From Thermoplasmata archaeon (GTDB lineage: Archaea; Thermoplasmatota; E2; DHVEG-1), in NCBI GenBank assembly GCA_020054495.1, contig JAHWGK010000001.1:19048-83047 (forward strand): DNA of 64,000 bases, written 5' to 3'. This document shows positions 11,133 to 38,003 of this stretch, piece by piece. Both the position numbers and the translations under genes were made by a program. The notes below the pieces were generated by a model, which was not told the origin of the DNA, made no database searches, and saw nothing but the letters and a program-made list of their open reading frames with translations. Numbering within the stretch: position 1 is the stretch's first letter; the number at the start of each line of letters is the position of its first letter.

Positions 11133-11141
11133 GTTATATTA

Positions 11142-11816
11142 ATGAAATCTATCGCTATAATTCCAGCAAGAGGCGGAAGTAAAGCAATTCCGAGGAAGAA
11201 TATAATTGAATTGGGCGGTAAACCACTAATAGCATATGTGATAGAAGCTGCGTTAAAGGTAAAAAAATTAGATCGAGTAATAGTTTCAACTGAAGACATG
11301 AAAATAGCAGAAATTGCAAAAAAATATGGAGCAGAATTACCATTTTTAAGACCGAAAGAACTAGCAAAAGATGAAACACCTACTTTACCAGTCTTACAGC
11401 ATGCCGTAAGAGTTCTTGAAGAAAAAGAGGATTACAAGCCAGATATAGTTGTTTTATTGTATGCTACATTTCCACTGCTTCAAGCTGAAAAAATATCTGA
11501 AGCAATACGGATGATTAAAGACGAAGGTTTCGATTCAGTTATTAGTGTAACTAAAGATAAAGGACATTACTGGGTAGAAGAAGATAATAATTATATTAGA
11601 TTGTATCCAAAAATCATTGAAAACAGACAGCTTGTTCAACCATTGTTTAAAGAAAATGGAGCGATTTATGCATGTAAAAGAGGTCTGCTCATGGAAAAAA
11701 ATGAAATTGTTAGTGGAAATATTGGATTTTTAATAATGAAAAAAGAGGAATCGGTTGATATCGACGAACAAATGGATTTTGAATTTGCTGAGTTCCTTTT
11801 AACAAAAAAAATATAA
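11142..11816 (+). CDS. pseF: CMP-nonulosonic acid synthetase (pseudaminic acid cytidylyltransferase-like)
   Basis: IAIIPARGGSKAIPRKNI motif of the CMP-NeuAc synthetase family. Position in the pse operon. Confidence 0.75.
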   Translation: MKSIAIIPARGGSKAIPRKNIIELGGKPLIAYVIEAALKVKKLDRVIVSTEDMKIAEIAKKYGAELPFLRPKELAKDETPTLPVLQHAVRVLEEKEDYKPDIVVLLYATFPLLQAEKISEAIRMIKDEGFDSVISVTKDKGHYWVEEDNNYIRLYPKIIENRQLVQPLFKENGAIYACKRGLLMEKNEIVSGNIGFLIMKKEESVDIDEQMDFEFAEFLLTKKI

Positions 11817-11904
11817 GCAATATTTACATATTAATGCTTAATTAAAATATTATCAACAAATATAGGAGAGACGGTTCTCAAATATTTAAACGGGAGAGAT
11901 TTGA

Positions 11905-13110: not shown

Positions 13111-13705
13111 TGTTAATATAGGTAATGTAAACAGTGTTAGTAAAGCTTTGAACTATCTGAAAGTAGACCATAAAGTCACAAATAATCTAGATGATATTTT
13201 AGAATCAGATAAAATAATTTTTCCAGGGGTTGGAAGTTTTTATGAAGCATCAAAAAGAATCAAAGCCTCTGGGATAAAAGATGTTTTAAAAAAAAGAGTT
13301 CTTGAAGATAAAATTCCCATTTTAGGAATATGTCTTGGCATGCAACTTTTAGCAACTACTGGAGAAGAAGTAAAAAAATCAGAAGGACTAGATTTGATTA
13401 AGGGGAAAGTTGCTATACACCGTGCATCAAAAGAGGGTTTACGTCTACCGCATATTGGATGGAACGATGTAACTTTCAAAGATTTCAAATTATTTGACTC
13501 TATTAAAAATGGATCATGTTTCTATTTTGTACATAGTTACGAAATGATTCCATCTGAAGAAGTAAAAGTTGCATACACTAATTACGGAGTCGATTATGTT
13601 GCAGCTATCCAAAAAGATAATATTTTAGGTGTTCAATTCCATCCTGAAAAAAGCCAGCATGTTGGTTTAAGATTATTAAAAAACTATTGTGAGGGGAAAT
13701 TTTAA
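13082..13705 (+). CDS. glutamine amidotransferase subunit, HisH paralog (WbuY/AglY-like)
   Basis: ITVIDVNIGNVNSV, GICLGMQ (nucleophile Cys), HSY, QFHPEKS. I chose ATG 13082 rather than the tracked 13007. Confidence 0.85.
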   Translation: MQKKLITVIDVNIGNVNSVSKALNYLKVDHKVTNNLDDILESDKIIFPGVGSFYEASKRIKASGIKDVLKKRVLEDKIPILGICLGMQLLATTGEEVKKSEGLDLIKGKVAIHRASKEGLRLPHIGWNDVTFKDFKLFDSIKNGSCFYFVHSYEMIPSEEVKVAYTNYGVDYVAAIQKDNILGVQFHPEKSQHVGLRLLKNYCEGKF

Positions 13706-14481
13706 TGCTACGATACAGGGTTATTCCACTTGTTCTTCTCGATGGATATTCGGTTGTAAAAACCATTCAGTTTGATATTCGTCGTAATCAGGGAAATCCT
13801 ATTGTAGTATCAAGAATTTATAACAGTAGAAACGTGGATGAACTAATGCTACTTGATATTGATGCTTCAAAAGAAGACAGAGGAATAGATTTACATACTG
13901 TTGACGCTGCATCCTCTGAATGTTTTATGCCTTTGACAGTAGGTGGAGGACTTAAAACCTGCGAAGATATAACTAAAGCACTAAAAGCTGGAGCAGATAA
14001 AATTTCTCTAAATACCATTATATTTGACAAACCCGAGTTTCTAAAAGAAGCCGTTTCTGTTTTTGGCAGTCAATGTATTGTTGCCTCAATTGATATCAAA
14101 AAAAATGAAATTGGCGAATGGGAGCTATTTTCACATTCAAATAGAAACGTCAATATGAGTTTAGATGAAATGCTGGATTTTCTGATAAAATCAGATGTGG
14201 GAGAAATACTAGTTAATAGTGTTGATTTAGATGGTACAATGAGTGGTTATGATCTGGATTTAATTGAACATGTATCTTCTGCAACAAATATTCCAGTTAT
14301 TGCAGCAGGTGGAGCATCTGGTCCAAATGATTGTAGTAGAGCAATAACAACAGGGGCATCTGCTGTATCAGCTGCGAGTATATTTCATTTCACAAGTTAT
14401 ACTCCAAGAACATGTAAAGAAGATATGGATAAACATGGAATACCAACAAGACTATTAGATATTGAAGACACAAAATTCTAA
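13705..14481 (+). CDS. cyclase-like subunit, HisF paralog (WbuZ/AglZ-like)
   Basis: RVIPLVLLDG..VVKT, LLDIDAS, PLTVGGG, PVIAAGGASG. Start overlaps the HisH-like stop. Confidence 0.85.
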   Translation: MLRYRVIPLVLLDGYSVVKTIQFDIRRNQGNPIVVSRIYNSRNVDELMLLDIDASKEDRGIDLHTVDAASSECFMPLTVGGGLKTCEDITKALKAGADKISLNTIIFDKPEFLKEAVSVFGSQCIVASIDIKKNEIGEWELFSHSNRNVNMSLDEMLDFLIKSDVGEILVNSVDLDGTMSGYDLDLIEHVSSATNIPVIAAGGASGPNDCSRAITTGASAVSAASIFHFTSYTPRTCKEDMDKHGIPTRLLDIEDTKF

Positions 14482-14513
14482 ATTAAAATATCAAATATCG
14501 GAGTAAGATCTGT

Positions 14514-15509
14514 ATGAGAATTGCTTTTAGAGTTGATGCTTCCAGAGAAATTGGAATCGGGCATCTAATGAGATGTCTTGCTTTATCAGAGGAATTACAA
14601 AAACAGGGTCATAAATGTTACATTTTATCAGAAACAAGCAAGGAAATAATAACTAATAAAATAAGTGAGTTCCAAGTTGAATTTTATAAGATAAATGAAT
14701 TAGCCGATGCGATTAAAATTTCAAAAGAAAACTGTATTGATTGGATTATTACAGATTGTTATAGTTTAAACTCAGAATATATTAAAAAATTAAAGGAGAC
14801 CTTCAAAGTTTTATCAATAGATGATAATGCTTTGATACATTATTATTCAGATGCAATAGTCAATCAAAATATCGGTGCAGATAAACTTGATTATTCAGCG
14901 GAGGAATATACTAGATTTTTCCTTGGATCTAAATATGTAATGATGAGAAATGAGCTGTTAAAAAGAAATGAGAAAAAAGAGAAAGACAAAGTTAAAAAAA
15001 TATTAATAACACTAGGAGGCGCAGATAAAGATAATTTTACATTAGAAATTTTAAAGATATTAAAAACAATAGATGAAAATGTCGAAGTTATAGCTGTTAT
15101 TGGTCCTTTTAACCCTTTTTACAATGTTCTCAAAGAATACGTAAACAAATCCAATTTAATGGTTAATTTAATTAAATCCCCTGAAAAAATGACAGACATT
15201 TATCTAGAGTCAGACATAGCTATTAGCGCAGGTGGAACATCTTGTTATGAACTTGCGTATTATGGCATTCCAAATCTAATTATAACTATTGCTGAAAATC
15301 AATTAAACATTGCAAAAGAGCTCGATAGACAAGGAATTAGCATATATCTTGGTGACCAGAAAGATGTAACAAGTGAAAAAATCAAAGAGAAGGTTAAAGA
15401 ATTAATAAACAATCATTCTTTAAGAAAAAGTATGAGCCAAAATGGAAGGAATCTGGTAGATGGACTGGGTAAAAAAAGAATTGTGGATTTTATGGAGAGT
15501 TATAATTGA
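14514..15509 (+). CDS. pseG: UDP-2,4-diacetamido-2,4,6-trideoxy-beta-L-altropyranose hydrolase, PseG
   Basis: MRIAFRVDASREIGIGHLMRCLALSEEL is the typical PseG N-terminus. GT-B-like C-terminal half (ITLGGADKDN, ISAGGTSCYE). Confidence 0.8.
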   Translation: MRIAFRVDASREIGIGHLMRCLALSEELQKQGHKCYILSETSKEIITNKISEFQVEFYKINELADAIKISKENCIDWIITDCYSLNSEYIKKLKETFKVLSIDDNALIHYYSDAIVNQNIGADKLDYSAEEYTRFFLGSKYVMMRNELLKRNEKKEKDKVKKILITLGGADKDNFTLEILKILKTIDENVEVIAVIGPFNPFYNVLKEYVNKSNLMVNLIKSPEKMTDIYLESDIAISAGGTSCYELAYYGIPNLIITIAENQLNIAKELDRQGISIYLGDQKDVTSEKIKEKVKELINNHSLRKSMSQNGRNLVDGLGKKRIVDFMESYN

Positions 15510-16543
15510 AGAAAGAAGTAAAAATCGGAAATAAAACAGTTGGAGATGGATACTCAACTTATATTATTGCAGAAATTGGAGCAAATCATAATTGTAATAT
15601 GAAAATTGCAAAAGAGCTAATCGATAAAGCAGCAGATGCACACGTTGATTCAGTTAAATTTCAAACATATAAAGCAGAAAAGCTTTATTCAAAAAAGGCA
15701 CCTCAGTTTTCAAAGGACGATATGAAACCATTTGACCTGATAAAATCAGTTGAGTTGCCAAGGAAATGGCATAAAGAACTATTTGAATATGCTGTTGAAA
15801 AAAATTTACATTTTATATCAAGCCCGTTTGATTTTGAAGCAGTTGATTTATTAAACGAAATTGGAGTTCCAGCATTTAAAATAGCTTCATTTGAAATCAC
15901 AGATCTTGAATTGTTGAAATATACAGCTGAAAAAAAGAAACCGATTATTCTATCAACAGGGATGGCAGATTTTGAGGAGATAAACGAGGCTTTAGAAGCA
16001 ATTATATCTACAGGAAATGATGATATTATTTTACTTCACTGTAACTCAATGTATCCTGCCCCCATTGAAATAGTTAATCTAAATGCAATACAGACGATGT
16101 CTCAAGAATTTAAGATACCTGTAGGTTTTTCCGATCATACTCTTGGAATTCATATACCTGTTGCAGCAGTTGCAAAAGGAGCGAAGTTAATAGAAAAACA
16201 TTTTACACTAGATAGGGCAATGAGCGGGCCTGATCATAGTTTTGCAATTGAACCACATGATCTTAAACAAATGGTTCAAAATATTAGGGATATTGAAAAG
16301 GCATTAGGAAATGGGAAAAAAGTTTTATCAAAAGCTGAAAAAGAGATGTATGAAAAAGGGAGAAGAAGCCTTATTGCTTCCCAGGATATTCCAAAAGGAA
16401 CAAAAATTACAAGAGAAATGATTATTATTAAACGGCCGGGTTATGGTATCAAACCAAAATTCTTAAACGATATAGTGGGAAAAATAGCTAAAAGAGACGT
16501 CGAGGAAGACCAATGGATCACATGGGAGGATATCAAAAAATAA
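15506..16543 (+). CDS. pseI: pseudaminic acid synthase, PseI (NeuB family with C-terminal SAF domain)
   Basis: YIIAEIGANHN, VDSVKFQTY, FKIASFE, GFSDHT, IEKHFTLDR, plus a SAF-like tail RRSLIASQDIPKGTKITREMIIIKRPGYGI. Confidence 0.9.
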   Translation: MKKEVKIGNKTVGDGYSTYIIAEIGANHNCNMKIAKELIDKAADAHVDSVKFQTYKAEKLYSKKAPQFSKDDMKPFDLIKSVELPRKWHKELFEYAVEKNLHFISSPFDFEAVDLLNEIGVPAFKIASFEITDLELLKYTAEKKKPIILSTGMADFEEINEALEAIISTGNDDIILLHCNSMYPAPIEIVNLNAIQTMSQEFKIPVGFSDHTLGIHIPVAAVAKGAKLIEKHFTLDRAMSGPDHSFAIEPHDLKQMVQNIRDIEKALGNGKKVLSKAEKEMYEKGRRSLIASQDIPKGTKITREMIIIKRPGYGIKPKFLNDIVGKIAKRDVEEDQWITWEDIKK

Positions 16544-17111: not shown

Positions 17112-18704
17112 ATGTTTAAGAACCATTCGTTAATAAGACATACTCGAAAAACGGTTGATGAAATGTCGCTTGGAAGATATAACGAGAAAATTAAAACCAT
17201 CGATGGCCTTCGAAAAATAATTGGAAAACCTCCACGGAAAAAAAAGGTAATAATGTGTCATGGAACATTTGACATAGTTCATCCAGGACATATACGACAG
17301 CTTGCTTATGCTAAGGAAAAAGCAGATATCCTTGTTGCAAGTGTAACTGCAGATAAATATGTTGCCAAGGGAGAAGAAAAACCATTTGTTCCAGAAGAAT
17401 TACGTGCTAAAAACCTTGCAGCATTAGAACTAGTTGATTATGTAATAATAGATTACCACCAAAAGCCAATAGATAATATATTGAAAATAAAACCTGATCT
17501 ATTCATAAAAGGATTCGAATATGCAAAGGACGGCATACATCCAAAAACAAAAGAGGAAATAAAAGCAGTAAGCTCTTATGGCGGTGAAATAATTTTCAGC
17601 CCAGGAGATATCGTTTATTCATCTACACATCTTTTAACAGTTCATCGACCTAAGATAGCCCTTGATAAAATACTTGCCTATATGGATGTAGAAAACGTTG
17701 GCTTCAATGACATTCTGAATGTTCTAAAGAAGTTTAAAAACACCAAGGTACATGTTATTGGAGATACCATTGTTGATAAATACTCATATTGCACAGTTCT
17801 CGGTCCAACTACCAAAACACCTACTTTTAGCATAAAACTAGACTCCTCTGAAATGTTTTTAGGTGGAGCAGGAATAGTTGCAAAACACCTAAAAAATCTT
17901 GGGGCGGATGTTACATTCACGACATTACTAGGAAATGATGACCTAAAAGATTTCGTAATTAAGGATATTAAAAAATGGAACATAAAAACAAATGCAATTA
18001 TAGATAATACTAAACCTACCACTTTAAAAGAAAGATTCTGGGCAGATGGATACAAACTTTTACAAGTTGATACTGTGGATAATAGTATAGTATCCAATAA
18101 AATTCTAAAAGAAATGTGCAATCATATAAAACAAGACAAACATGATATATATGTTTTCAGTGATTTCAGACACGGCATCTTCAACAAAGAGACAATTAAA
18201 ACAATAATCGATAGCACAGATCCAAAAACAATAAAAGTTGCAGATAGTCAGGTAAGTAACAGATGGGGAAATATATTAGAGTTCAGTGGAGTAAATATTA
18301 TTTTCCCAAATGAAAAAGAGGCGAGATTTGCTCTTGGTGATCAAGATTTGGGAATTAGACCTCTTGCAGCACAGCTTTATAGAAAATCCAAGGCAAAATA
18401 TCTAGTATTAAAATTAGGGGAAAAAGGCATTCTGATTTATAGAAAACCCCGAGCACCTACCAAGCCAAGAGATTTCATATTTATTGACAGTTTTGTAGAA
18501 GAATTAAAAGATGCACTTGGTGCAGGAGATGCACTACTTGCTACAACATCTCTTGCATACAAATGCTCAAAAGATATTTTTATAAGTGCGATTCTTGGGA
18601 ATGCTGCGGCGGCTGTTGCATGTGAAAAAGAAGGAAATCATCCAGTATCAATAAAAGAAATAGAACAAAAGATAGAAAGCATTAGTAACAACAAATTTGA
18701 ATAA
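17112..18704 (+). CDS. bifunctional nucleotidyltransferase (N-terminal, HxGH) / PfkB sugar kinase (C-terminal); HldE-like with inverted domain order
   Basis: N-terminal CHGTFDIVHPGHI (cytidylyltransferase-fold HxGH). C-terminal ribokinase-family motifs GGAGIVAKHL and DALGAGDALLA. Confidence 0.75.
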   Translation: MFKNHSLIRHTRKTVDEMSLGRYNEKIKTIDGLRKIIGKPPRKKKVIMCHGTFDIVHPGHIRQLAYAKEKADILVASVTADKYVAKGEEKPFVPEELRAKNLAALELVDYVIIDYHQKPIDNILKIKPDLFIKGFEYAKDGIHPKTKEEIKAVSSYGGEIIFSPGDIVYSSTHLLTVHRPKIALDKILAYMDVENVGFNDILNVLKKFKNTKVHVIGDTIVDKYSYCTVLGPTTKTPTFSIKLDSSEMFLGGAGIVAKHLKNLGADVTFTTLLGNDDLKDFVIKDIKKWNIKTNAIIDNTKPTTLKERFWADGYKLLQVDTVDNSIVSNKILKEMCNHIKQDKHDIYVFSDFRHGIFNKETIKTIIDSTDPKTIKVADSQVSNRWGNILEFSGVNIIFPNEKEARFALGDQDLGIRPLAAQLYRKSKAKYLVLKLGEKGILIYRKPRAPTKPRDFIFIDSFVEELKDALGAGDALLATTSLAYKCSKDIFISAILGNAAAAVACEKEGNHPVSIKEIEQKIESISNNKFE

Positions 18705-18779
18705 GGTTTATTCTTAGAAAAAGTATTAAATAAACAGTAGATTACGAGAGTGGAGAAAAATACAAGGAGAAAAAAGATT

Positions 18780-19472
18780 ATGCCAATTTTTTTAGATTCA
18801 AGTATAACTTCTGAGATAAAAAAATTCCATAAAATGGGAATCATAAGAGGGATTACAACAAATCCAACTATAATGTTCAAAGATGGTGTTACTGGCGGAA
18901 TGGATGGAATTAAAGAGAGATCTAAAGAAATAGCTGATATTGTAAAACCTTATCCCGTATCAGTCGAGGTTATGACAAACGATCGAGATGGGATGATACA
19001 GCAAGCCAAGGAATTTTCAAAATGGGCTACAAATATTAATATAAAAATTACAGCACATGGTCCTAACGGCGAACTAGTCAATTTTGAAGTTGTCCACGAG
19101 CTTGAAAAAGTCCATAACATAAGGGTAAATACTACTGCAATGATGAGCGCACAACAATGTTTCTTAGCCGCCCTTGCGGGATCTACTTATGTTTCAATTT
19201 TTGGTGGAAGAGTAAACAATATGGGCTATAACTGCTGTGATGAAATACAAAAATTAAGAACTGCAATTGATGACTTTGATCTTAAATCAAAAATTATTGT
19301 AGGCTCAACCCGTGAAGTTTTAAACACCATCGAATGGTTAAATGCAGGTGCTCATATTGTAACAATTGCCCCTAAATTATTGGAGGGGATGATTGTTCAT
19401 CCTTACACTAAAGAAACTGTTCAAATGTTTTTATCTGATGCTGGAAAAATCAAATCAATGCTAAATAAATAA
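18780..19472 (+). CDS. transaldolase / fructose-6-phosphate aldolase family (type 3B, TalC/FSA-like)
   Basis: MPIFLDSS...GITTNPTI, INIKITA (Schiff-base Lys region), YVSIFGGR. ATG 18780 follows AGGAG; the tracked GTG 18750 was rejected. Confidence 0.85.
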   Translation: MPIFLDSSITSEIKKFHKMGIIRGITTNPTIMFKDGVTGGMDGIKERSKEIADIVKPYPVSVEVMTNDRDGMIQQAKEFSKWATNINIKITAHGPNGELVNFEVVHELEKVHNIRVNTTAMMSAQQCFLAALAGSTYVSIFGGRVNNMGYNCCDEIQKLRTAIDDFDLKSKIIVGSTREVLNTIEWLNAGAHIVTIAPKLLEGMIVHPYTKETVQMFLSDAGKIKSMLNK

Positions 19473-19518
19473 AACTTGGAAAAAATTCAAATCCTTGTAT
19501 TTTTACCGATGGGATGTG

Positions 19519-20061
19519 ATGAGCATTAAAAATAAGGCAGTGTTTCTTGATAGAGACGGCGTAATCAATGAAGTAGTATTTCATAATAGTGAAAAGCCAT
19601 CATCACCATGGAATTTCAATGAATTTAAGCTTATAAAAGGAGTGAAAGAACCATTGGAAGCCCTAGCAAAAATAGGATATTTACTTTTTGTAATATCAAA
19701 TCAACCTGATATATCACGAGGGTTTGTTGAAAAAGGAACGACTGAGAAAATAAGCCGGATAATCTATGATAAATACCCTGTTAAAGAGATTATAGTTTGT
19801 CCTCATGATGATCATCATAATTGTAACTGCCGTAAACCCAAACCTGGGATGATTTTAGAACTATCAAAAAAATATGATGTTGATTTAAAAAAATCGTTTT
19901 TAATTGGTGATAACTGGAAAGATACTGAAGCAGGGGAAAAAGCTGGATGTACAACTATTTTATTGGATAAAACTTATAATAAATCTGTTGAGTCTGATTA
20001 TAGAACAGAAAATCTAAACACAGCTGTAAAGTTGATAAAATCTATTCATAATAAAAATTAA
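19519..20061 (+). CDS. gmhB: D-glycero-D-manno-heptose 1,7-bisphosphate phosphatase-like HAD (GmhB)
   Basis: AVFLDRDGVINE, ISNQPDISRG, zinc-site CPHDDHHNCNCRKPKPGM, IGDNWKDTEAG. Confidence 0.85.
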   Translation: MSIKNKAVFLDRDGVINEVVFHNSEKPSSPWNFNEFKLIKGVKEPLEALAKIGYLLFVISNQPDISRGFVEKGTTEKISRIIYDKYPVKEIIVCPHDDHHNCNCRKPKPGMILELSKKYDVDLKKSFLIGDNWKDTEAGEKAGCTTILLDKTYNKSVESDYRTENLNTAVKLIKSIHNKN

Positions 20062-27103: not shown

Positions 27104-28321
27104 TCATTTTTTAACATTTTTTAAGATAGACTCATAAAAACTGTCAACTCTATTAATGTGATTATCAATCAACCATTTTTCTCTGAATTTTAAGACATTT
27201 TTTTTAAGATCGTTATAATCGTAATTATCTATTAATTTTTTTAAGTTATCAATATCATTATTGCTAACTCCAAAACCAATATTATTTTTCTCAATAATCT
27301 GTGTTAAATATTCCAAACGGTCACTAATAATCAAGGGTAAACCTGCCTCAAAGAAATTATATTGACGGTAACTCCTAGCAGCAATCTTCATAGCTTCAGG
27401 TGTACAGTGATTCATCAATTCAGTTGGTCTTATTATCGCTCCAAAGTCATACTGGGCAATTTCATTCTGAACTTGATTAAAAGGTACAGCACCGTGTAAA
27501 TGGAAATATTTTTCCTTTCGATTCATTTCGGCATACTTTTGATAAACATTCCAAACTGTACTATATGGTACAAGATAGATGTGGAAGTGTATCTTTTGTT
27601 TAAAAAACCTCTTCAACATATCAGGGATAAAAGTTGATTGCATTCCAGAACCAATATTCACAAGATGATATTCGCCATCCTCCGAGGAGAGCTTTTTGGT
27701 CTTATCCTTTACAAAAAAATCTTCATTACAATAATCAAAGTAATTTAACAAAGGACATGTAATTTTGTAATTGTGTTTTTTATAGTAATCAACTTCAAAA
27801 TCAGGACCCCTATAAATAATGCCATTCACATTTTCAAAACAATATTTATCTTTTTCATATTGCTCCTTTGAAAGATTCTCAATGCCCCACATTATTGGAC
27901 CATTATGAAGATCCATAACCACAGGTTTATCAGTATTTTTTAGAGTAAAAAAGGTTAATTCATCAGAACTACAACAATTGTATAAATCTGCCTTTATTTT
28001 TCGAAAAAGAGTCTGAAATCTTACACGATAACTAAGTTTTTCAAAAAATGGACCAAGAGCATTATCCGTCATCAAAACCTTGAACGTATGTACAATTGGT
28101 GAATCGTCACCTGATTGAGCGAAACCAAAATTTTTTAAATCTAAAAGAGGAGGCTGGTAACATATGATTTCATCAAAAACATTTTTAAAGATAGCTAAAT
28201 TTTTTTTGTCAAAATTACGGCATAAAAGAATTATCTTGAATTTCTTCGTTTTTTTCAAAGCGTATGCTTGATTATACATCCTTGGATATGGATTATGCCT
28301 CAAGAACATAATGGTTTTCAT
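27104..28321 (-). CDS. putative GT-B glycosyltransferase
   Basis: C-terminal FFEAGLPLIISD resembles the GT4 E..AGLPVI.. region. Start moved to ATG 28321 (after GGAAAGAGG). Confidence 0.5.
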   Translation of the reverse strand: MKTIMFLRHNPYPRMYNQAYALKKTKKFKIILLCRNFDKKNLAIFKNVFDEIICYQPPLLDLKNFGFAQSGDDSPIVHTFKVLMTDNALGPFFEKLSYRVRFQTLFRKIKADLYNCCSSDELTFFTLKNTDKPVVMDLHNGPIMWGIENLSKEQYEKDKYCFENVNGIIYRGPDFEVDYYKKHNYKITCPLLNYFDYCNEDFFVKDKTKKLSSEDGEYHLVNIGSGMQSTFIPDMLKRFFKQKIHFHIYLVPYSTVWNVYQKYAEMNRKEKYFHLHGAVPFNQVQNEIAQYDFGAIIRPTELMNHCTPEAMKIAARSYRQYNFFEAGLPLIISDRLEYLTQIIEKNNIGFGVSNNDIDNLKKLIDNYDYNDLKKNVLKFREKWLIDNHINRVDSFYESILKNVKK

Positions 28322-28451
28322 TTGCCTCTTTCCGATTGTAAACATGAATTCTTATAATATTTTTTCCAAAATAGTTGCTTTAGACTTAAAATATCAAAAA
28401 ACATTGAATAAGAGTGCAGTAATTAGTATAAAAATGCAAAGTTCAAATTAG

Positions 28452-29750: not shown

Positions 29751-29916
29751 GGTAATATTAGATTTTGATGATGAATGGGTTCTTATTCAAAAGTGTTTTT
29801 GCTTACATTATTTTAGCGAATAATGATTTTATCAAGTACGAGTACTGTACGATATTATAATAACACAAGATTTTTGTATAAGTTACTGTTCACATACTGT
29901 AATTAAAGGTGATATT

Positions 29917-30963
29917 CTGCCAAAAAATGGTTATAATTCCGTAACACTACCAGATGCCTTAGTAAAAGATATAGACAATTTTGTAGATCAGAGTAATAAA
30001 TTGATTTCAAGCAGAAGTGAAGCGCTAAAATTAGCATGGATAGAGTATAAAGATAAACATATAGAAAATGTATTAGATAAATCTGTAAGAAAAGATACTT
30101 CCAAAGTGAAAATTGGCAATAAAGCTGTGGGGGATGGTGAACCTGTTTTTTTCATAGCAGAGATTGGCATTAATCATAATGGAGACATTGAAATAGCGAA
30201 AAAACTAATTGATATTGCAGTTGAAACGGGTTGTGATGCTGTTAAATTTCAAAAAAGAACAGTTGATATTGTTTATTCAAAAAAAGAGTTAGAAAGGCCA
30301 AGAGAAAACCCATTTGGTACGACTAACGGGGATCTTAAAAGAGGATTAGAATTCGGCGAGAAGGAATTTAGTGTAATTGATAAGTATTGTAAACAAAAAA
30401 ACATACTTTGGTTTGCATCCTGTTGGGACGAAAAAAGTGTAGATTTTATAGATCAGTTTAACCCACCATGCTATAAAATTGCATCTGCATGTTTGACAGA
30501 TGATAATTTATTAAAACATACAAAAGCCAAAGGTAAACCAATTATGTTATCAACTGGTCTTAGTACAATTGATGAAATCAAACATGCAGTCGATATTCTA
30601 GGAACAAAGGGTCTTATTATTTTACATTGCACATCAACATATCCTTCAGCACTAGATGAATTAAATTTAAAAGTAATACAGAATTTTAAAAAGAGGTTTA
30701 ATTGTCCAATTGGCTATAGTGGCCATGAAGTTGGTGTAACACCTAGTCTAATGGCGGCTGTAATGGGATCATGTGTAATTGAAAGACATATTACCCTAGA
30801 TAGGGCTATGTGGGGTAGTGATCAAGCTGCAAGTCTAGAACCTAATGGTATTAGAAGACTTGTAAGGGATATTGGACAAATATCTATTGTCAACAGTGAT
30901 GGAATAAAAAAAGTTTATGAGAGTGAATTACCGATTAAATCTAAGTTAAGGCGAGTTGGATGA
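29917..30963 (+). CDS. NeuB-family (sugar + PEP) synthase lacking the SAF domain, with an in-frame N-terminal ribbon-helix-helix-like segment
   Basis: NeuB core VFFIAEIGINHNGD, CDAVKFQKR, YKIASAC, GYSGHE, IERHITLDR. Upstream in the same frame: NSVTLPDALVKDIDNFVDQSNKLISSRSEALKLAWIEY. The 5' end is uncertain (CTG 29917, ATT 29914, TTG 30001 or GTG 30106). Confidence 0.75.
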   Translation: MPKNGYNSVTLPDALVKDIDNFVDQSNKLISSRSEALKLAWIEYKDKHIENVLDKSVRKDTSKVKIGNKAVGDGEPVFFIAEIGINHNGDIEIAKKLIDIAVETGCDAVKFQKRTVDIVYSKKELERPRENPFGTTNGDLKRGLEFGEKEFSVIDKYCKQKNILWFASCWDEKSVDFIDQFNPPCYKIASACLTDDNLLKHTKAKGKPIMLSTGLSTIDEIKHAVDILGTKGLIILHCTSTYPSALDELNLKVIQNFKKRFNCPIGYSGHEVGVTPSLMAAVMGSCVIERHITLDRAMWGSDQAASLEPNGIRRLVRDIGQISIVNSDGIKKVYESELPIKSKLRRVG

Positions 30964-31550
30964 AAAAAAAAATTGAAGAAATAATACAGGCGAATATAGA
31001 TACAACTACTAAACTATTGAAATCTGATTTGGAAAAAATCGAAGAAACAGTAAGTATTATAACTAAAGCTTTAAAGAATGGAAATAAGCTATTAATTTTT
31101 GGAAATGGTGGCAGCGCAGCCGATGCTCAGCATATCGCGGCTGAGTTTATCAACAAATTCAGATTTGATAGAGATCCTTTACCAGCAATTGCATTAACAA
31201 CAGATTCGTCCATATTAACTTGTATATCAAATGACTCTAGTTTTAGTCATATTTTTGAAAAACAAATAAAGGCTTTAGGAAACAAAGGCGACATCGCCCT
31301 AGCAATAACCACCAGTGATTCAATTTTAGAAGAAAATGCTCATTCATCAAATATTGGATTTGCACTTGCTGCATCTAGAGAAAAAGGAATAACAACTATC
31401 GGATTTGTTAGTGAGAAAAGTAAAACTATTTTAGATTACCTTGATCATTATATTAAAATTCCTTCATCGGATACGCCTAGAATTCAGGAGGCGCACATCT
31501 TAGTTGGTCATATTATTTGTGAACTTGTTGAACAGGAAATATTTCATTAA
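30960..31550 (+). CDS. gmhA: SIS-domain phosphoheptose isomerase (GmhA-like)
   Basis: LLIFGNGGSAADAQHIAAEF, LTTDSS, DIALAITTS, QEAHILVGHIIC. ATGA overlap with the upstream stop. Confidence 0.85.
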   Translation: MKKKIEEIIQANIDTTTKLLKSDLEKIEETVSIITKALKNGNKLLIFGNGGSAADAQHIAAEFINKFRFDRDPLPAIALTTDSSILTCISNDSSFSHIFEKQIKALGNKGDIALAITTSDSILEENAHSSNIGFALAASREKGITTIGFVSEKSKTILDYLDHYIKIPSSDTPRIQEAHILVGHIICELVEQEIFH

Positions 31551-31568: not shown

Positions 31569-32135
31569 ATGATTAGTAAAAAAATAGCCGAGCCGATATT
31601 AATTCATGGGAGTAATTTCAGATTAGAGAGTTTTAATGATAAATATGTTACAGAAGAATATGTGAGTTGGTTAAGAGATAAAGAAATTGCAGAAGTAATC
31701 ATTAGTGCTAACCCAAATGTTACAATAGAAAATGTTCAAGATTATTGTCAAAAAATGATGGAAAGTAATGACAATTATTTTTTTGCTATTGTTATGAATG
31801 CAAATGATAAACATATAGGTAATCTAAGATTGGGGCCTATTGATTATGATCAACGAAGTTGTAGATATGGAATGATGATTGGTAATAAGGATTATCATAA
31901 CAAAGGAGTTGGATCAGAAGTAGTTAAGTTAGCCTTAGATTTTTGTTTTCAAACTCTAGGCATGCATAAAGTCTTTTTAGATGTTTTAGAGCATAATAAA
32001 CCTGCGATTAAAATCTATGAAAAGAATGGTTTTGAAACTGAAGGAATACAACGTGACCAATTTTACAAAGATAGTAAATATTACGACGTTAGAATAATGG
32101 GTATTATTAATCCAAAGGAGAGAAATACCAAATGA
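31569..32135 (+). CDS. GNAT-family N-acetyltransferase
   Basis: HNKGVGSEVV...IKIYEKNGFETEG GNAT core. Confidence 0.8.
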   Translation: MISKKIAEPILIHGSNFRLESFNDKYVTEEYVSWLRDKEIAEVIISANPNVTIENVQDYCQKMMESNDNYFFAIVMNANDKHIGNLRLGPIDYDQRSCRYGMMIGNKDYHNKGVGSEVVKLALDFCFQTLGMHKVFLDVLEHNKPAIKIYEKNGFETEGIQRDQFYKDSKYYDVRIMGIINPKERNTK

Positions 32136-32818
32136 GCCGGCATATAGCAATGATACCAGCGCGGATGGGGAGTGTTGGTTTCAAACATAAAAACAGGAAG
32201 TTTTTTGATTGTACTGCAGATTTTCTTGATGATGTTAAATGGTTTGATAGAGTAATTGTTTCAACAGATGACCCAGTTGTAAAAGAATACTCAGAAAAAA
32301 GGGGATACGACGTTCACATTCGTCCAGAAGAGTTAGCAGGCCCTGTAGTTTCAATTAAACAAGTTTTTGAAAGTGTAATAGAAGACATGAGCATCGAAAA
32401 AGATGATATTCTTTGGTTGTTCTACTTACCAATTCTGTATAAGAGTCATGCTGATTTTGAAGAATCTAAAAAAATAATTGAAAAACCTGATGTGAAAAGT
32501 CTTTGTTCTTTTATCAAAGCTGAGACTCATCCATATGTTTGTTGGAATTACGACTCTGATAAAAAAACTTTAACACAGTATATAGAAAACGATTGTTTTA
32601 GAAGGCAGGATCAGCCACTGGCATGGGAGCACCACCATTATCTTTATTGTTTCAAAGCAGAGGAGATATCTAAGCTCGATAATGAAATGATAAATAGCAA
32701 AACATATCCTGTTTTTTTAGACGAGGAAACGGCTGAGAATTTGCTTGAGATGGATGCACCTTCAGATTATGAAAAATGGAAAAAGAAATTTGGAGAAAAA
32801 GGAGTGATTAAAAAATGA
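32132..32818 (+). CDS. divergent acylneuraminate (CMP-ulosonic acid) cytidylyltransferase family protein
   Basis: IAMIPARMGSVGFKHKNRKF is a degenerate version of IPARGGSKGIPRKN. The size fits the family. Confidence 0.65.
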   Translation: MSRHIAMIPARMGSVGFKHKNRKFFDCTADFLDDVKWFDRVIVSTDDPVVKEYSEKRGYDVHIRPEELAGPVVSIKQVFESVIEDMSIEKDDILWLFYLPILYKSHADFEESKKIIEKPDVKSLCSFIKAETHPYVCWNYDSDKKTLTQYIENDCFRRQDQPLAWEHHHYLYCFKAEEISKLDNEMINSKTYPVFLDEETAENLLEMDAPSDYEKWKKKFGEKGVIKK

Positions 32819-34170
32819 GCGTAACAGTAAATATTAAAAAACCTGTTATTAAAAAATCAGATGAAATATACGCACGAGCAGAAAAAATAATACCTTCAGG
32901 AACACAAACTTTTAGTAAAGGTACAAATCAGTTTGTAAGAGGATTTGCGCCCAAATATATTGCAAAAGGTAAAGGATGTTATACATGGGATGTTGATGGG
33001 AACAAATATCTAGATATGATAATGGCATGTCATGCAAAAATTCTTGGTTATGCAGATCCAGATGTAAATCAAGCTGTAAAGGACCAACTTGACATAGGAA
33101 CCACATACAGTCTCCCACATGAATTAGAAGTAGATGTTACAGAGAAATTAATAGATGCAATACCCTGCGCAGAAGCTGCTCGTTTTGGAAAAAACGGAGC
33201 AGATGCAACATCTATTTGTGTCAGAGTTGCAAGAGCCAATACTAATCGTGACCATATCGCATACTGTGGCTACCATGGCTGGCATGACTGGTATATTGCA
33301 AATACAGACCTAAATTCAGGCATACCATATTTCAACCAGGAACTGGCACATTCTTTTGCATATAATCAGATAGAAACACTTGAGAACATATTCAATGAAT
33401 ATCCAGATGATATAGCAGTAGTAATAATGGAAGCACTTACAATACTTGAGCCAAAAGACAACTTCCTCCACAAAGTCAAAAAACTAACACATGACCATGG
33501 AGCGCTTCTAGCATTTGATGAGGTTATGACAGGGTTTAGATTCTCATTTGGAGGAGCACAAGAGCTAACTGGTGTAACACCAGATATTGCAGCCTTTGCA
33601 AAAGCAATCTCAAATGGCATACCGCTTTCTGCAATAGTCGGTAAAAAAGATTATATGTTCTGCCTTGACAAAACATTTTTCTCATTTACATATGGCGGGG
33701 ACTGTGTAGGACTTGCCGCAGCAAATGCATGCATTCCAAAGCTTAAGAGAGAAAAGGTATCAGAACACCTTCACAAAGTCGGAAAAGTATTAAAAGATGG
33801 ATACAACAAACTTGCAGAGCAACACGGTCTTGCAGATTACACCAATTGTATGGGATATCCCTGCAGAACAGTTATATCATTTGACGGGCAGGGAACATAT
33901 GATTCCCTTGAAATGAAATCATTCTTCCAACAAGAGATGATAAGACGAGGAGTTCTCTGGGCTGCATATCATGCACTAACCTGGTCACATAAACTGGAAG
34001 ATATCGAATACACACTAGCCTGCTATGACGAAGCACTTGCAGAATTCAAGAAAATTGTTGATAAAGGTGACAAAATCAAATATCACCTAGAAGGCCCACC
34101 AGTAGAACCAGTCTTCAGAAAAGTTGCAGATTTTATGTCATATACAATGAAAGATAAAAAGGTAAATTAG
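32815..34170 (+). CDS. class III PLP aminotransferase (glutamate-1-semialdehyde aminomutase-like)
   Basis: FGKNGADAT, FDEVMTGFRF, DIAAFAKAISNG (PLP Lys). Confidence 0.85.
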   Translation: MSVTVNIKKPVIKKSDEIYARAEKIIPSGTQTFSKGTNQFVRGFAPKYIAKGKGCYTWDVDGNKYLDMIMACHAKILGYADPDVNQAVKDQLDIGTTYSLPHELEVDVTEKLIDAIPCAEAARFGKNGADATSICVRVARANTNRDHIAYCGYHGWHDWYIANTDLNSGIPYFNQELAHSFAYNQIETLENIFNEYPDDIAVVIMEALTILEPKDNFLHKVKKLTHDHGALLAFDEVMTGFRFSFGGAQELTGVTPDIAAFAKAISNGIPLSAIVGKKDYMFCLDKTFFSFTYGGDCVGLAAANACIPKLKREKVSEHLHKVGKVLKDGYNKLAEQHGLADYTNCMGYPCRTVISFDGQGTYDSLEMKSFFQQEMIRRGVLWAAYHALTWSHKLEDIEYTLACYDEALAEFKKIVDKGDKIKYHLEGPPVEPVFRKVADFMSYTMKDKKVN

Positions 34171-34173: not shown

Positions 34174-35016
34174 ATGAAGAAAATAGGAATCGTACAGGGG
34201 AGATTATCACCACCGGTAGATAATCAAATACAAGCGTTTCCAATATATACATGGAAAGATGAGTTTCCAATATATGAACAACTTGGGCTTTCCTGTATCG
34301 ATTGGTTATTCAAATATGAAACAGTTGCAGGTAACCCCTTAAGCTCTGATTCTGGGATTGAACAGATTAAAGAACTATGTCACAAGCACAATGTCAAGAT
34401 AAACGCAGTTTTATCTGATTATTTCATGGTTAAAAAACTGTTTGGCGAAGAAGCAGATGAATCGATTAAAACCCTGTATTTTTTAATTGACCAATGTAAC
34501 AAATGTGGCATACCAAACATTGTTCTTCCTTTTGTGGATAATGCTGCTATAAAAGCAGAAGAGGATAAAAAACAAATAGTCGAAAATCTAACAGAACATA
34601 TACGATATGCTAACAAGAAAAATATCAATATCATAATAGAAGGGAGTTTGGAACCTGTTGTGTTTAGAGATTTTATAATATCTTTCAAACCTCTTAATAT
34701 GAAAATTAACTATGACATGGGTAACAGCACTGGTCTTGGTTATAATCCTAGAGAAGAAATAAGATTATTAGGAGAGTTTTTCGGAAGTGTTCATATCAAA
34801 GATAAAATAAAAAGTGGCGGAACTGTACCACTAGGTACTGGTAATGTAGATTTCGAAACAGTTTTTAATGAGCTTAAAAATATTGATTATTCTGGAAATT
34901 TTGTTTTAGAAACAGCACGCCAGGATTTAGAAGAGACTAAATTTATAAATGATAGAGTAGAAACAATAAAAAATTATATTAATTTCGTAAAACCATATCT
35001 AGAGGGATTTGAATGA
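34174..35016 (+). CDS. xylose-isomerase-like TIM-barrel sugar(-phosphate) isomerase/epimerase
   Basis: 280 aa. Pattern ...IIIEGS..., NYDMGN, VHIKD, FVLE is typical of the AP_endonuc_2 fold. Confidence 0.65.
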   Translation: MKKIGIVQGRLSPPVDNQIQAFPIYTWKDEFPIYEQLGLSCIDWLFKYETVAGNPLSSDSGIEQIKELCHKHNVKINAVLSDYFMVKKLFGEEADESIKTLYFLIDQCNKCGIPNIVLPFVDNAAIKAEEDKKQIVENLTEHIRYANKKNINIIIEGSLEPVVFRDFIISFKPLNMKINYDMGNSTGLGYNPREEIRLLGEFFGSVHIKDKIKSGGTVPLGTGNVDFETVFNELKNIDYSGNFVLETARQDLEETKFINDRVETIKNYINFVKPYLEGFE

Positions 35017-35828
35017 GATTTAGTTTAAAAAATCAGATAGTTGTAATAACAGGTGGCGGTGGTTTCCTAGGTGGTAAGCATGCCGAAGCAATAGCAGAAA
35101 TAGAAGGCATTCCGATCCTGATAGACATTGATGAAGAAAGTGCGAAGGCTAAAGCAAAATCAATTGAGGAAGAATATGGCAGTGCAGCATTAGGTTACAA
35201 AGTAGATATTACATCTACCGAAGAAATTGAAACGCTTGCAGATGATCTTTTAAAAAGATTTGATAAAATTGATGTATTAATCAATAATGCAGCCATGAAT
35301 CCTCAGATGGATTATAAAACAGAGAAAGAAGAAACACGTTTAGAAAACTTCTCTCTTGAACGCTGGAATGATGAAGTTTCTGTTGGACTCACGGGTGCTT
35401 TTATTTGTAGTAAAATTATTGGTCCACATATGGCAAAAAGAGGTAAAGGTGTAATTTTGAATATTGCCTCTGACCTTGGACTTATAGCTCCAGATCAAAG
35501 AATATATCGGAAAAAAAACCTTTCAGACGACAAGCAGCCTGTTAAACCTGTTACTTACACTGTGGTAAAACATGGTCTTATAGGTTTAACACGTTACTTA
35601 GCAACTTATTGGTGTGATAAAGGAGTTCGTGTCAATGCTTTATGTCCAGGCGGAATATACAATAATCAACCTGAAGATTTCGTAGAAAAGCTTACGAATC
35701 TTATACCTCTCGGGAGAATGGCCAATCCCGACGATTACAAGGGAGCCATTCAGTTTATGTGTAGTGATGCCTCTATTTATATGACTGGTTCAATTGTTGT
35801 AATAGATGGCGGACGTACCTGCTGGTAA
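35013..35828 (+). CDS. short-chain dehydrogenase/reductase
   Basis: VITGGGGFLGG, NNAA, YTVVKHG (YxxxK), NALCPGG. Confidence 0.85.
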   Translation: MRFSLKNQIVVITGGGGFLGGKHAEAIAEIEGIPILIDIDEESAKAKAKSIEEEYGSAALGYKVDITSTEEIETLADDLLKRFDKIDVLINNAAMNPQMDYKTEKEETRLENFSLERWNDEVSVGLTGAFICSKIIGPHMAKRGKGVILNIASDLGLIAPDQRIYRKKNLSDDKQPVKPVTYTVVKHGLIGLTRYLATYWCDKGVRVNALCPGGIYNNQPEDFVEKLTNLIPLGRMANPDDYKGAIQFMCSDASIYMTGSIVVIDGGRTCW

Positions 35829-35884: not shown

Positions 35885-36346
35885 ATGTATTCTAAGATAA
35901 AACTACTAGCATTAGATTTTGATGGGGTTATGACTGATAACAAGGTTATTGTGGATGAAAACGGTAAGGAATCAGTTGTTTGCAATAGAAGCGATGGAAT
36001 GGGTATAGAGAAAATAAAAAAGAGAGATATAGAAGTAATTGTTATTTCCAAAGAACAAAATAATGTTGTAAGAGCACGTTGTGATAAACTAAGGATTCCA
36101 TGTGTTCATGGTATAGATGACAAGTTATCAATTTTAAAAAAAGAAATAGAAAAAAGAAATCTAACTCCCGAAGAAGTTTGTTTTGTCGGAAATGATGTTA
36201 ACGATATTGAATGCATTAAATATGTTGGGATGGGTGTCGCTGTAAACAATGCTTATCCCGAGGTTAAAAAAATAGCAAAAATGGTTACAGAAAAAACCGG
36301 TGGTGAAGGAGCAGTAAGGGAAGTAATTGACAAAATATTATCCTAG
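35885..36346 (+). CDS. HAD-IIIA KdsC-family ulosonate-phosphate phosphatase
   Basis: LLALDFDGVMTDN, NRSDGMGI, VGNDVNDIE. The 153-aa size is typical of KdsC/KDN-9-P phosphatases. Confidence 0.8.
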   Translation: MYSKIKLLALDFDGVMTDNKVIVDENGKESVVCNRSDGMGIEKIKKRDIEVIVISKEQNNVVRARCDKLRIPCVHGIDDKLSILKKEIEKRNLTPEEVCFVGNDVNDIECIKYVGMGVAVNNAYPEVKKIAKMVTEKTGGEGAVREVIDKILS

Positions 36347-36356: not shown

Positions 36357-38003
36357 TTACTTTTCTTCTTTGTTTTTTAACTCAGATTTTACATAGCCCA
36401 TCATTTTTTTAGGATGAAAAAGGTCTATGAAAAAATGAAAATCATCTTTTTTAAACTCCCTTAACGCAAATAATACTGCCATATAAATTGCCAGTCCAAC
36501 TAGTGAAAAACTGATTAAATGATACCAGCGGAATAATACAATAAATGACTTAAGATAATATAGAGTTCCTCCCATAACTATGCCCGCTATGATATGTCTT
36601 ATAGTATGGCTTTGTAGGATTTTGATTCCTGTAAATCTTTTTGCTGCAAGTCTTGTACCGAAGAAATATATCAAAGCTGAAATAGCTGTTGCGGTTGCAG
36701 CTCCTGTTGGTCCATTAATGGATATCACATATGAGCTGATTCTAATATTTGAAAGTAAACCATTTTCTGGAATAATCAAATAATTTAAAATTATGTTTGT
36801 ACCACATAACATTACTCCAATTAATGCTTGTATCTTTGGTTTGTTTATACCAAGAACAAGATTTGCATAAGGAAGAGATATTCCATAAATAAAAACCCAT
36901 ATTAACAAGGTCATCAAAACGGGTGCTGCTGGTAAAAAAGCAGTATCTAGAACTATTTCGATAATTCGCGAGGCAAATAAAAGGACTACAACTATCGGAG
37001 GAATCAAAACCATCGAAATGTATCTTTCTGCTAAACGAACCGCTTTTTTAATTTCCCCGAAATTATTAGAAGCATGATACTTTGAAATTGTTGGAAAGAG
37101 AACAGTGCCAACAGCCATCGCCAAAATTGTTATAAGACCGGTTATACGTTGAACTGTGAAATAATAACCAACCTCTACAGATGTCCAAAAAAATCCTATC
37201 ATAACTTTATCAATATTTGTAGAAATAATAGCAATAACTGATGAAAATGCGACAGGAACGGCAAAGGAAAAATAGCTCTTAAATAAAATCCAATTAGGTT
37301 TTTTCAAAGGGTACTTTCTAAAAAGCCAAAATCCTACAAAAAATGTTGCCATCATGCCAAAGACATAGGTCATTGCCAAAGAACCAACTGCATGATCTGC
37401 AATGAATTTTTGGAGCGGTTGAATAAATTCCGGCCAATCAAACGCAGGGGTAACACTATAAAATTTACCTGCGACAAAAAATCCAGTAACCCCTGCCAAG
37501 GCTACAATGATTAAAAGAGGGGTTTTAACGATGGTTTCTAACATTTCCGCGATTTGTTTCTTTGCAATTTCTCGCCTACCAACAAAAGTATTAATCGGTA
37601 TAGATTTTAATAACGAAAAAATGGTGTAAATAAGCATGATGAAGAAAACAGATTCTGTTGTTGCATCTGTAAAACCTTCGTTAAAGATATATTTCGAAAT
37701 AAAATAAGTACCAATAAGAAGTATTAACATCAAACTCGTAAGAAATATTTTAATTACTACAAATGTACCGATACAAGTACCTAAATCTTGTCCTTCTGAT
37801 ACCCTTTTGATATGTGCTTGAGAAAAACCTAGATCAGTTACAGCATTAAACAAAGCAATAAATGATAATGCAAATCCAATAATACCAAGAGCGGCTGGTG
37901 CAGCTTGTCCCCATAGCTTTGCCAGTACAAAAAATCCAATAATGGCTAGAGTTTTGATAATAAAATTTGTTGACACAATCAGAAAAGATTTCCTGGCAAT
38001 CAT
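36357..38003 (-). CDS. MOP-superfamily polysaccharide/oligosaccharide flippase (Wzx-like)
   Basis: 548 aa, about 14 predicted TM helices, typical polysaccharide-biosynthesis-protein layout. Confidence 0.8.
   Translation of the reverse strand: MIARKSFLIVSTNFIIKTLAIIGFFVLAKLWGQAAPAALGIIGFALSFIALFNAVTDLGFSQAHIKRVSEGQDLGTCIGTFVVIKIFLTSLMLILLIGTYFISKYIFNEGFTDATTESVFFIMLIYTIFSLLKSIPINTFVGRREIAKKQIAEMLETIVKTPLLIIVALAGVTGFFVAGKFYSVTPAFDWPEFIQPLQKFIADHAVGSLAMTYVFGMMATFFVGFWLFRKYPLKKPNWILFKSYFSFAVPVAFSSVIAIISTNIDKVMIGFFWTSVEVGYYFTVQRITGLITILAMAVGTVLFPTISKYHASNNFGEIKKAVRLAERYISMVLIPPIVVVLLFASRIIEIVLDTAFLPAAPVLMTLLIWVFIYGISLPYANLVLGINKPKIQALIGVMLCGTNIILNYLIIPENGLLSNIRISSYVISINGPTGAATATAISALIYFFGTRLAAKRFTGIKILQSHTIRHIIAGIVMGGTLYYLKSFIVLFRWYHLISFSLVGLAIYMAVLFALREFKKDDFHFFIDLFHPKKMMGYVKSELKNKEEK

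Follow-up and report, generated by a model that had tools for sequence, protein, structure and literature searches.

To our knowledge, the characterised 2-keto-3-deoxy sugar acids of cell surfaces all contain either eight carbons, as in 3-deoxy-D-manno-oct-2-ulosonic acid (Kdo), or nine, as in the sialic acids, 2-keto-3-deoxynononic acid (Kdn), pseudaminic (Pse) as well as legionaminic (Leg) acid. Kdo is formed in Gram-negative bacteria by the KdsD-KdsA-KdsC-KdsB pathway. Among the synthases of the NeuB family, the Kdn-9-phosphate (Kdn-9-P) synthase of Prymnesium parvum lacks the SAF domain and is specific for mannose-6-phosphate (Man-6-P) by experiment (PMC6200933), and about 30% of the bacterial NeuB sequences are likewise without SAF, their role having been left open (PMC8208679). 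The locus described here lies in a stretch of 64,000 nucleotides, hereafter the window, from a Thermoplasmata archaeon (assembly GCA_020054495.1, contig JAHWGK010000001.1, positions 19,048 to 83,047 of the forward strand), in which the gene of a SAF-less NeuB-like synthase overlaps gmhA, the gene of a phosphoheptose isomerase. We give an even chance to gmhA being an integral part of a conserved ulosonic-acid cassette that works through phosphorylated intermediates and leads to a ten-carbon (C10) product via heptose-7-phosphate (heptose-7-P); that the window GmhA works for the NeuB-like operon is considered likely.

The isomerase gene (30960..31550, plus strand) encodes a single-domain SIS_2 protein of 196 amino acids (PF13580, 69.9 bits against a cut-off of 27), whose best NCBIfam matches are the phosphoheptose isomerase models and whose best PDB match is the GmhA of Burkholderia pseudomallei (2xbl, E=3e-45). 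The zinc and catalytic residues of GmhA in Neisseria gonorrhoeae are H61, E65, Q175 and H183 (PMC5387315). In the window protein H58, E62, Q176 and H184 line up with the corresponding residues of B. pseudomallei GmhA, and all the aligned sequences conserve them. Judged from its sequence, the window protein is a canonical GmhA with intact catalytic residues, and it groups with GmhA rather than with KdsD/KpsF, the placement that the initial annotation had set against a heptose substrate.

The phosphate loop of the window GmhA departs from the S-T-S-G-x-S norm of GmhA; the Ser/Thr residues are kept, Gly is replaced by Asp, and an insertion of seven residues follows (TTSD-SILEENA-HSSN). The variant loop is the mark of a clade; two of its members, P0017 and P0022, are 61-64% identical to the window GmhA and are located in HddC-HddA-GmhA-GmhB operons. 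The insertion was considered as a mark of a NeuB-specific, neofunctionalised GmhA and was rejected, since GmhAs of the same clade from HddA/HddC operons carry it. On TIGR00441 (cut-off 209 bits) the window GmhA scores 155 bits, which is under the cut-off, as are the 157-158 bits of the operon-validated P0017 and P0022; the similar score of these residents of heptose operons suggests that a sub-cut-off value is not evidence against the function.

The synthase gene directly upstream (30001..30963, plus strand; 320 amino acids) contains the NeuB domain only (PF03102, 257.6 bits) and its product ends about 20 residues past this domain; no match to the SAF domain (PF08666) was obtained in it. It scores 249 bits on the NeuB model TIGR03569 (cut-off 400) and 204 bits on the PseI model TIGR03586 (cut-off 340), and its best PDB match is 6ncs, a SAF-less Leptospira protein of 290 amino acids. 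The other NeuB of the window, a PseI-like paralogue at 15506-16543, has a SAF domain. SAF-less homologues of 288-301 amino acids with 62-72% identity occur in Melainabacteria, the candidate phyla radiation (CPR), Chloroflexota, Acidobacteriota, Planctomycetota, Actinomycetota and an Acidocella isolate. Cultured carriers of the cassette include Acidocella aquatica NBRC 112502 (L045) and a Chloroflexus strain. From the absence of SAF and the pairing with a KdsC-like phosphatase, the synthase is predicted to belong to a large conserved family using a phosphorylated substrate. The translation start is placed at TTG 30001, but the reading frame continues well upstream of this codon (region 29827-30105), giving an open frame of 378 amino acids. 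The closest homologues measure 342-351 amino acids and not 288-301, so the N-terminal extension is probably real in the window's lineage.

The nature of the phosphorylated substrate is the point on which a nine-carbon (C9) alternative turns. Here the same cassette logic would hold, with a GmhA-type or other enzyme giving Man-6-P, a step like that of Kdn-9-P synthase, removal of the 9-phosphate by KdsC and activation of an amino-Kdn derivative as its cytidine monophosphate (CMP) sugar. This outcome, the main and a serious rival of the C10 reading, is judged unlikely. The only characterised SAF-less enzymes of a phospho-route, BT1714 of Bacteroides thetaiotaomicron and the Prymnesium Kdn-9-P synthase, take Man-6-P (PMC6200933), and the window synthase aligns with the Prymnesium enzyme (sequence from the supplement of PMC6200933) over its full length with 31% identity over 279 amino acids, sharing the loop 'KFQKR...NP..G.T.G...LEF'. 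The product of GmhA is moreover a manno-configured aldose, and the conversion of fructose-6-phosphate (fructose-6-P) to Man-6-P would be chemically analogous. The Prymnesium enzyme is, however, 29% identical to the SAF-containing PseI-like paralogue of the window as well, so the value of 31% does not establish orthology of the window synthase to Kdn-9-P synthase. A Kdn cluster is described in Streptomyces (SCO4873-4882; PMC13011467); in a homologue search aimed at the Kdn/teichulosonic acid cluster, no Streptomyces names were present among the best 120 matches to an actinobacterial synthase.

The linkage of GmhA to the synthase was followed in 80 genome loci seeded on the synthase and 80 metagenome loci seeded on GmhA, with many metagenome-assembled genomes (MAGs) among them; as the sampling was seeded on these two genes, the co-occurrence counts are inflated. 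In 70 of the 80 genome loci the synthase has a KdsC-like gene no farther than 10 kb away, mostly adjacent to it, and a GmhA-family gene is found near the synthase in 26 of the 80, from Chloroflexota, CPR, Actinomycetota, Acidobacteriota, Gemmatimonadota and others (at least six phyla). The genes are also found fused. P0190 is a NeuB::GmhA fusion of 486 amino acids, the GmhA half of which scores 209 bits on TIGR00441; KdsC::GmhA fusions with the canonical STSGNS loop occur in three loci (L020, L024, L079), and a CMP-transferase::KdsC fusion of 418 amino acids occurs in a Chloroflexia locus (L071). The initial annotation had proposed looking for GmhA beside SAF-less NeuB genes in other genomes, and these loci and fusions supply such cases. 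In the GmhA-seeded metagenome loci, cassette contexts (L094, L095, L115, L129, L154, L156, L158, L171, L172) are about as common as nucleoside diphosphate (NDP)-heptose contexts, and nine of the closest GmhA homologues come from contigs equal in length to those of the closest synthase homologues, one of these pairs being directly verified in L095. The fusion of L071 belongs to one cluster (8676-15114) with a pair of SAF-less NeuB paralogues, which have 63% and 56% identity to the window synthase, and with TIM-barrel, GFO/IDH/MocA, SDR and GmhA genes.

In the GmhA tree, the NeuB-linked GmhAs are placed at no fewer than 12 separate positions and are interleaved with GmhAs of NDP-heptose operons. 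The clade of the window GmhA (18 entries, support 99) has both NeuB-linked and heptose-operon members, and the alignment displays the same functional residues in the two groups. The interleaved tree and the unchanged functional residues suggest recruitment of ordinary GmhAs rather than a neofunctionalised lineage, and both observations stand against a C9 product formed from fructose-6-P. Many GmhA-like matches in same-phylum genomes of families f9, f48 and f29 lie in open frames of about 350 or 500-540 amino acids, a length that hints at GmhA being fused to further domains in other lineages of archaea.

The genes accompanying GmhA point in the same direction as the tree. Loci L172 and L156 have the order methyltransferase, transketolase N, transketolase C, transaldolase, GmhA, KdsC, SAF-less NeuB, class IV aminotransferase, TIM barrel, methyltransferase, SDR, SDR and CMP-transferase, and in L010 a transaldolase and a transketolase follow the NeuB::GmhA fusion gene. 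Dedicated pentose-phosphate enzymes beside GmhA fit a supply of sedoheptulose-7-phosphate (sedoheptulose-7-P) and would be senseless for the abundant fructose-6-P, which again disfavours the C9 alternative.

Genomes holding a GmhA beside the synthase with no kinase for its product are also informative. An HldE-type kinase was not detected in 14 of the 18 genomes with a NeuB-adjacent GmhA, and no fewer than 10 of these, from CPR, Chloroflexota and Actinomycetota, are without a convincing HddA too; all ten Melainabacteria tested have an HldE-type kinase. The closest single-contig Thermoplasmatales relative, which belongs to the window's family (G325; CP070724), has a GmhA 62% identical to that of the window within a SAF-less NeuB cluster comprising GNAT, CMP-transferase, aminotransferase and SDR genes, flanked as in the window by flippase, GlmU and GlmS genes. 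No heptose kinase of either type was detected in this relative, and NDP-heptose genes are absent from it. Where GmhA is kept beside the synthase without a heptose kinase, heptose-7-P has no known fate except the adjacent synthase.

These genomes bear on a further explanation, in which gmhA is an ordinary NDP-heptose gene placed in the neighbouring operon, co-regulated with it and serving the heptose module at 17.1-20.1 kb, while the synthase takes an unrelated sugar phosphate. The module is constituted as the initial annotation had described it, with three plus-strand genes and no GmhA. It begins with an HldE-like fusion of an N-terminal nucleotidyltransferase domain and a C-terminal PfkB kinase (17112..18704; 164 bits on TIGR02198 and 97 bits on TIGR02199, both under cut-off), which is followed by an extra transaldolase of the glycan island (18750..19472; PF00923; best PDB matches the transaldolases 3r8r, 1vpx and 3s0c) and a GmhB-like HAD protein, the predicted heptose-1,7-bisphosphate phosphatase (19495..20061). 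The domain order of the fusion is opposite to that of Escherichia coli HldE, and both its domains are far under the equivalog cut-offs. The transaldolase carries Phe ('SIFGGR'), the transaldolase type, and not the Tyr of fructose-6-P aldolase; it is a possible source of sedoheptulose-7-P. The lack of an isomerase in this module favours its being served by gmhA. The GmhB-like gene is the only one of the genome, which indicates that the modules of the island share enzymes; further heptose genes are present in the genome, including a PfkB protein (C176:22020-22979) with 318 bits on the heptose-7-P kinase model TIGR02198, well above the HldE-like fusion, and genes of glycan islands are often shuffled.

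A whole-assembly search, however, revealed a second GmhA-family gene, SIS2 (C111:12462-13082), 6 kb before the start of the window and 25 kb from the module at 17.1-20.1 kb. A 4-nt overlap joins this gene to that of an HddA-like GHMP kinase, and an HddC-like nucleotidyltransferase gene comes next (module C111:11464-13837). SIS2 is 25% identical to the window GmhA, with Glu to Asp and Gln to Glu replacements at two zinc-site positions. The HddA-SIS2 pair is present also in the relatives G183 and G223, indicating a native NDP-heptose module of the archaeal family. The statement of the initial annotation that the window GmhA is the only phosphoheptose isomerase is therefore correct for the window and fails for the genome; its suggestion that one isomerase serves the distant module loses its premise genome-wide, as the family has its own HddA-GmhA-HddC module (G000, G183, G223), and retains the fact that the HldE-like module of the window has no isomerase of its own. 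An exclusive NDP-heptose role of gmhA is regarded as quite unlikely, given this second GmhA, the recurrence of the GmhA/NeuB-like/KdsC linkage in many phyla, whether by fusion or by adjacency and also where the genome lacks a heptose kinase, and the orthologous GmhA in the NeuB cluster of the closest single-contig relative, which has no NDP-heptose genes. A third SIS match of the genome, on another contig, is a PHI-like protein; a second, housekeeping transaldolase is on contig C33 and a transketolase on C193. SIS2-type genes divergently adjoin the SAF-less synthase in six Acidobacteriota loci (L025, L033, L061, L062, L066, L083).

Besides the inflation of the counts by seeding, several observations weigh against heptose-7-P as the substrate and a C10 product. 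The HldE-like NDP-heptose module devoid of its own GmhA is only 11 kb from the window GmhA. In 54 of the 80 synthase loci no GmhA lies nearby, an absence that also suits the C9 alternative; a SIS_2 match is present somewhere in 73 of the 80 genomes, and none was found at E<=1e-12 in the other 7, all of them MAGs. In a Planctomycetaceae chromosome record of 7.7 Mb, the synthase of which is 64% identical, all the SIS_2 proteins are divergent and lack the zinc-binding His; in this lineage the synthase is accompanied by a thiamine diphosphate (ThDP) enzyme and by genes for CDP-3,6-dideoxyhexose. No isomerase is encoded in an Anaerolineaceae cassette (L039), and GmhA was not found in its genome. 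Among the six archaeal relatives with a SAF-less synthase (51-54% identity), a canonical GmhA is present in one only; with this number, synthase/GmhA co-occurrence across the archaeal phylum is uninformative. The isomerase could, moreover, convert fructose-6-P to Man-6-P and so lead to a C9 Kdn-type product; for actinomycetes, in which Kdn polymers occur, the ulosonic acid on record in the walls is Kdn (PMC11481543). CMP-activated C10 ulosonic acids have been recorded by mass spectrometry in Magnetospirillum gryphiswaldense, with no pathway assigned (preprint 10.64898/2026.04.20.719630); they resemble the predicted product in being CMP-linked alpha-keto acid sugars with a chain of more than nine carbons, the existence of which is thereby evident. 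In Magnetospirillum, however, the sugar is Pse/Leg-like and di-N-acetylated, and its marker fragment is set apart from that of Leg by CH2 and not CHOH (10.64898/2026.04.20.719630), and this makes it a precedent rather than a match.

The proposal of the initial annotation that heptose-7-P itself feeds the NeuB-like condensation has nevertheless gained substantial comparative support from the fusions, the adjacency, the transketolase and transaldolase genes and the orphan GmhAs, as against some cassette genomes without a canonical GmhA. Of the two readings it offered, this is the better supported one, with roughly equal chances for and against a C10 product.

The remaining genes of the operon allow a pathway to be proposed by analogy with those of Kdo and Kdn, from which we infer the substrates and products, the order of tailoring and the C10 backbone. 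Sedoheptulose-7-P would be supplied by transaldolase and transketolase, and GmhA would convert it to D-glycero-D-manno-heptose-7-P, which the SAF-less synthase would condense with phosphoenolpyruvate (PEP) to a 3-deoxy-dec-2-ulosonate 10-phosphate. The terminal phosphate would be stripped by the KdsC/YrbI-family phosphatase encoded by the final gene of the operon (35885..36346, plus strand); this protein, already taken as KdsC-like in the initial annotation, has the DxDGV motif and scores above the cut-off of TIGR01670 (129.4 bits against 106.95). Oxidation and amination, possibly at the terminal position as in the 8-amino derivative of Kdo (Kdo8N), would be carried out by a PRK09186/PtmA-like SDR oxidoreductase (35013..35828, plus strand; family models) and a class III aminotransferase similar to glutamate-1-semialdehyde aminomutase (32815..34170, plus strand; PF00202, 161 bits; NF004856, 402 bits, under cut-off). 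A PseH-like GNAT N-acetyltransferase (31569..32135, plus strand; Pfam Acetyltransf_3/_1; TIGR03585, 70 bits, under cut-off) may then acetylate the amine. A xylose-isomerase-like TIM-barrel protein of the sugar or sugar-phosphate epimerase/isomerase type (34174..35016, plus strand; PF01261, 84 bits; weak matches to L-ribulose-5-phosphate 3-epimerase models) would epimerise or isomerise an intermediate at some stage. Finally, a divergent CMP-ulosonate cytidylyltransferase (32132..32818, plus strand; E=5e-7 on PF02348, and E=1e-11, under cut-off, for a full-length match to the PseF model TIGR03584) would provide the CMP-sugar for the transferases and flippase of the island. In addition, the HldE-like module 11 kb upstream may be supplied by this GmhA.

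The eight co-directional genes from NeuB-like to KdsC-like are joined by four ATGA junctions, with a widest gap of 56 nt. At the first junction (30960..30963, plus strand; direct reading of the sequence), the TGA stop of the NeuB-like gene (30961-30963) overlaps the ATG start of gmhA (30960-30962) in the letters 'ggATGAaaa', as the initial annotation had noticed; the others join the GNAT gene to that of the cytidylyltransferase, the latter to the aminotransferase gene, and the TIM-barrel gene to that of the SDR. Overlaps of 4 nt occur in 7 of the 50 same-strand neighbour pairs of the window, 4 of these 7 being within this operon, and since they are common in the window the ATGA overlap is a mark of operon membership and nothing unusual. 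Convergent to the operon is a Wzx-type flippase gene (36357..38003, minus strand), followed by archaeal GlmU and GlmS genes, a flank that recurs in CP070724. By this GlmU and by the relatives of the genome, the organism falls among Thermoplasmatales-like archaea. Divergent from the operon, an open reading frame of 413 amino acids (27104-28345, minus strand) lies between a methyltransferase and a TagF/GT1-like gene and has no Pfam match at E<=0.001. The synthases of the window's own archaeal family, at 51-54% identity, fall below the bacterial homologues (up to 72%, in Melainabacteria and CPR). The closer bacterial synthases suggest inter-domain transfer of the cassette, though the guanine-plus-cytosine content of the operon matches that of the window (0.34 and 0.32, respectively) and gives no signal of recent transfer.

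The tailoring genes recur with the synthase elsewhere. TIM-barrel homologues stand beside it in 25 of the 80 genome loci, TIM, SDR and GFO/IDH/MocA genes accompany it in 25-30 of the 80, and the window SDR is 57-65% identical to the SDRs of the bacterial cassettes. Their recurrence, and the resemblance of the TIM barrel to ketose-phosphate 3-epimerases, also suit a scheme in which heptose-7-P, or another ketose or aldose phosphate, is modified first by the TIM, SDR or aminotransferase protein (e.g. 3-epimerised or aminated) and only then condensed, yielding an unpredicted stereoisomer or amino sugar, with some lineages handing the ulosonate to a ThDP enzyme without CMP activation. In keeping with the latter, Planctomycete and Acidobacteria loci have a ThDP enzyme and genes for CDP-3,6-dideoxyhexose alongside the synthase, and no CMP-transferase. 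This scheme is considered very unlikely; it refines the heptose-7-P reading rather than opposing it. At these Planctomycetota and Acidobacteriota loci (L070, L082, L075 and others), the synthase and KdsC genes flank that of the ThDP enzyme, which has 600 amino acids, and RfbF-like, RfbG-like and E1-type (Fe-S DegT) CDP-3,6-dideoxyhexose genes lie upstream. In this variant the ulosonate may go into sugar branching instead of being CMP-activated.

It is evenly poised, in our estimate, whether a family of ten-carbon 'deculosonic' acids, made from sedoheptulose-7-P by a Kdo-like logic, with lineage-specific tailoring and CMP activation, has its genetic basis in the triad of GmhA, SAF-less NeuB and KdsC seen in this archaeon and across bacterial phyla. 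If true, a whole ten-carbon class without a characterised pathway or structure would be added to the surface sugars, with first candidate genes for such a class. Unexplained C10 ulosonic-acid signals already exist in mass spectrometric surveys. The linkage also gives a testable substrate hypothesis for a large share of the SAF-less bacterial NeuB homologues. The presence of the cassette in archaea, CPR, Chloroflexota, Acidobacteriota, gut Melainabacteria and others suggests that its product, of whatever chain length, is likely a common part of S-layers, flagella or envelopes that has so far escaped notice. Among the Gastranaerophilales of gut and rumen (Melainabacteria; L011, L012/L016 and others), the synthase-KdsC pair lies directly 3' of fliO among flagellar and chemotaxis genes, which hints at flagellin glycosylation by the cassette sugar.

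A literature search retrieved no description of a GmhA-NeuB pathway or of a 'deculosonic' acid, in agreement with the remark of the initial annotation that no counterpart was known. The closest described system is the CMP-Kdn pathway of B. thetaiotaomicron (BT1714 synthase, BT1713 phosphatase) and P. parvum, which likewise employs a SAF-less NeuB-family synthase acting on a sugar phosphate and PEP, a KdsC-family phosphatase and a CMP-transferase (PMC6200933). The window operon differs from it in the GmhA-type isomerase that is coupled to the synthase here and fused to it elsewhere, in the added aminotransferase, GNAT, SDR and TIM-barrel genes, and in the predicted substrate, which is heptose-7-P instead of Man-6-P. 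With the NDP-glycero-manno-heptose pathways (GmhA, HddA or HldE, GmhB, HddC) it has GmhA as the first enzyme in common, whereas it contains no kinase, GmhB or heptose nucleotidyltransferase. In Shewanella Kdo8N formation, the KdnB oxidase and the KdnA aminotransferase reportedly act on the free ulosonic acid; this tailoring is a possible model for the action of the SDR and aminotransferase, and of the GNAT, after dephosphorylation, although the enzyme families in the window are different (SDR, class III). An analogy with Campylobacter PtmF/PtmA, with PtmF taken as a SIS isomerase, was rejected, PtmF being listed as an oxidoreductase (PMC4481668). The likeness to the Kdo pathway lies in the same four-step logic of SIS-domain isomerase, PEP-condensing synthase, KdsC phosphatase and CMP-transferase, and the kdsD-kdsC adjacency is mirrored by the KdsC::GmhA fusions. 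The window isomerase is, however, of the GmhA type, with a zinc site and no CBS domain, and not KdsD (SIS and CBS); the synthase is of the NeuB family and not of the KdsA/DAHP-synthase family; and a C7 substrate and C10 product are predicted as compared to C5 and C8 for Kdo. As far as the gene families indicate, the operon follows the scheme of the Kdo pathway without belonging to it, and what appears new is a Kdo/Kdn-type logic combined with a heptose isomerase.

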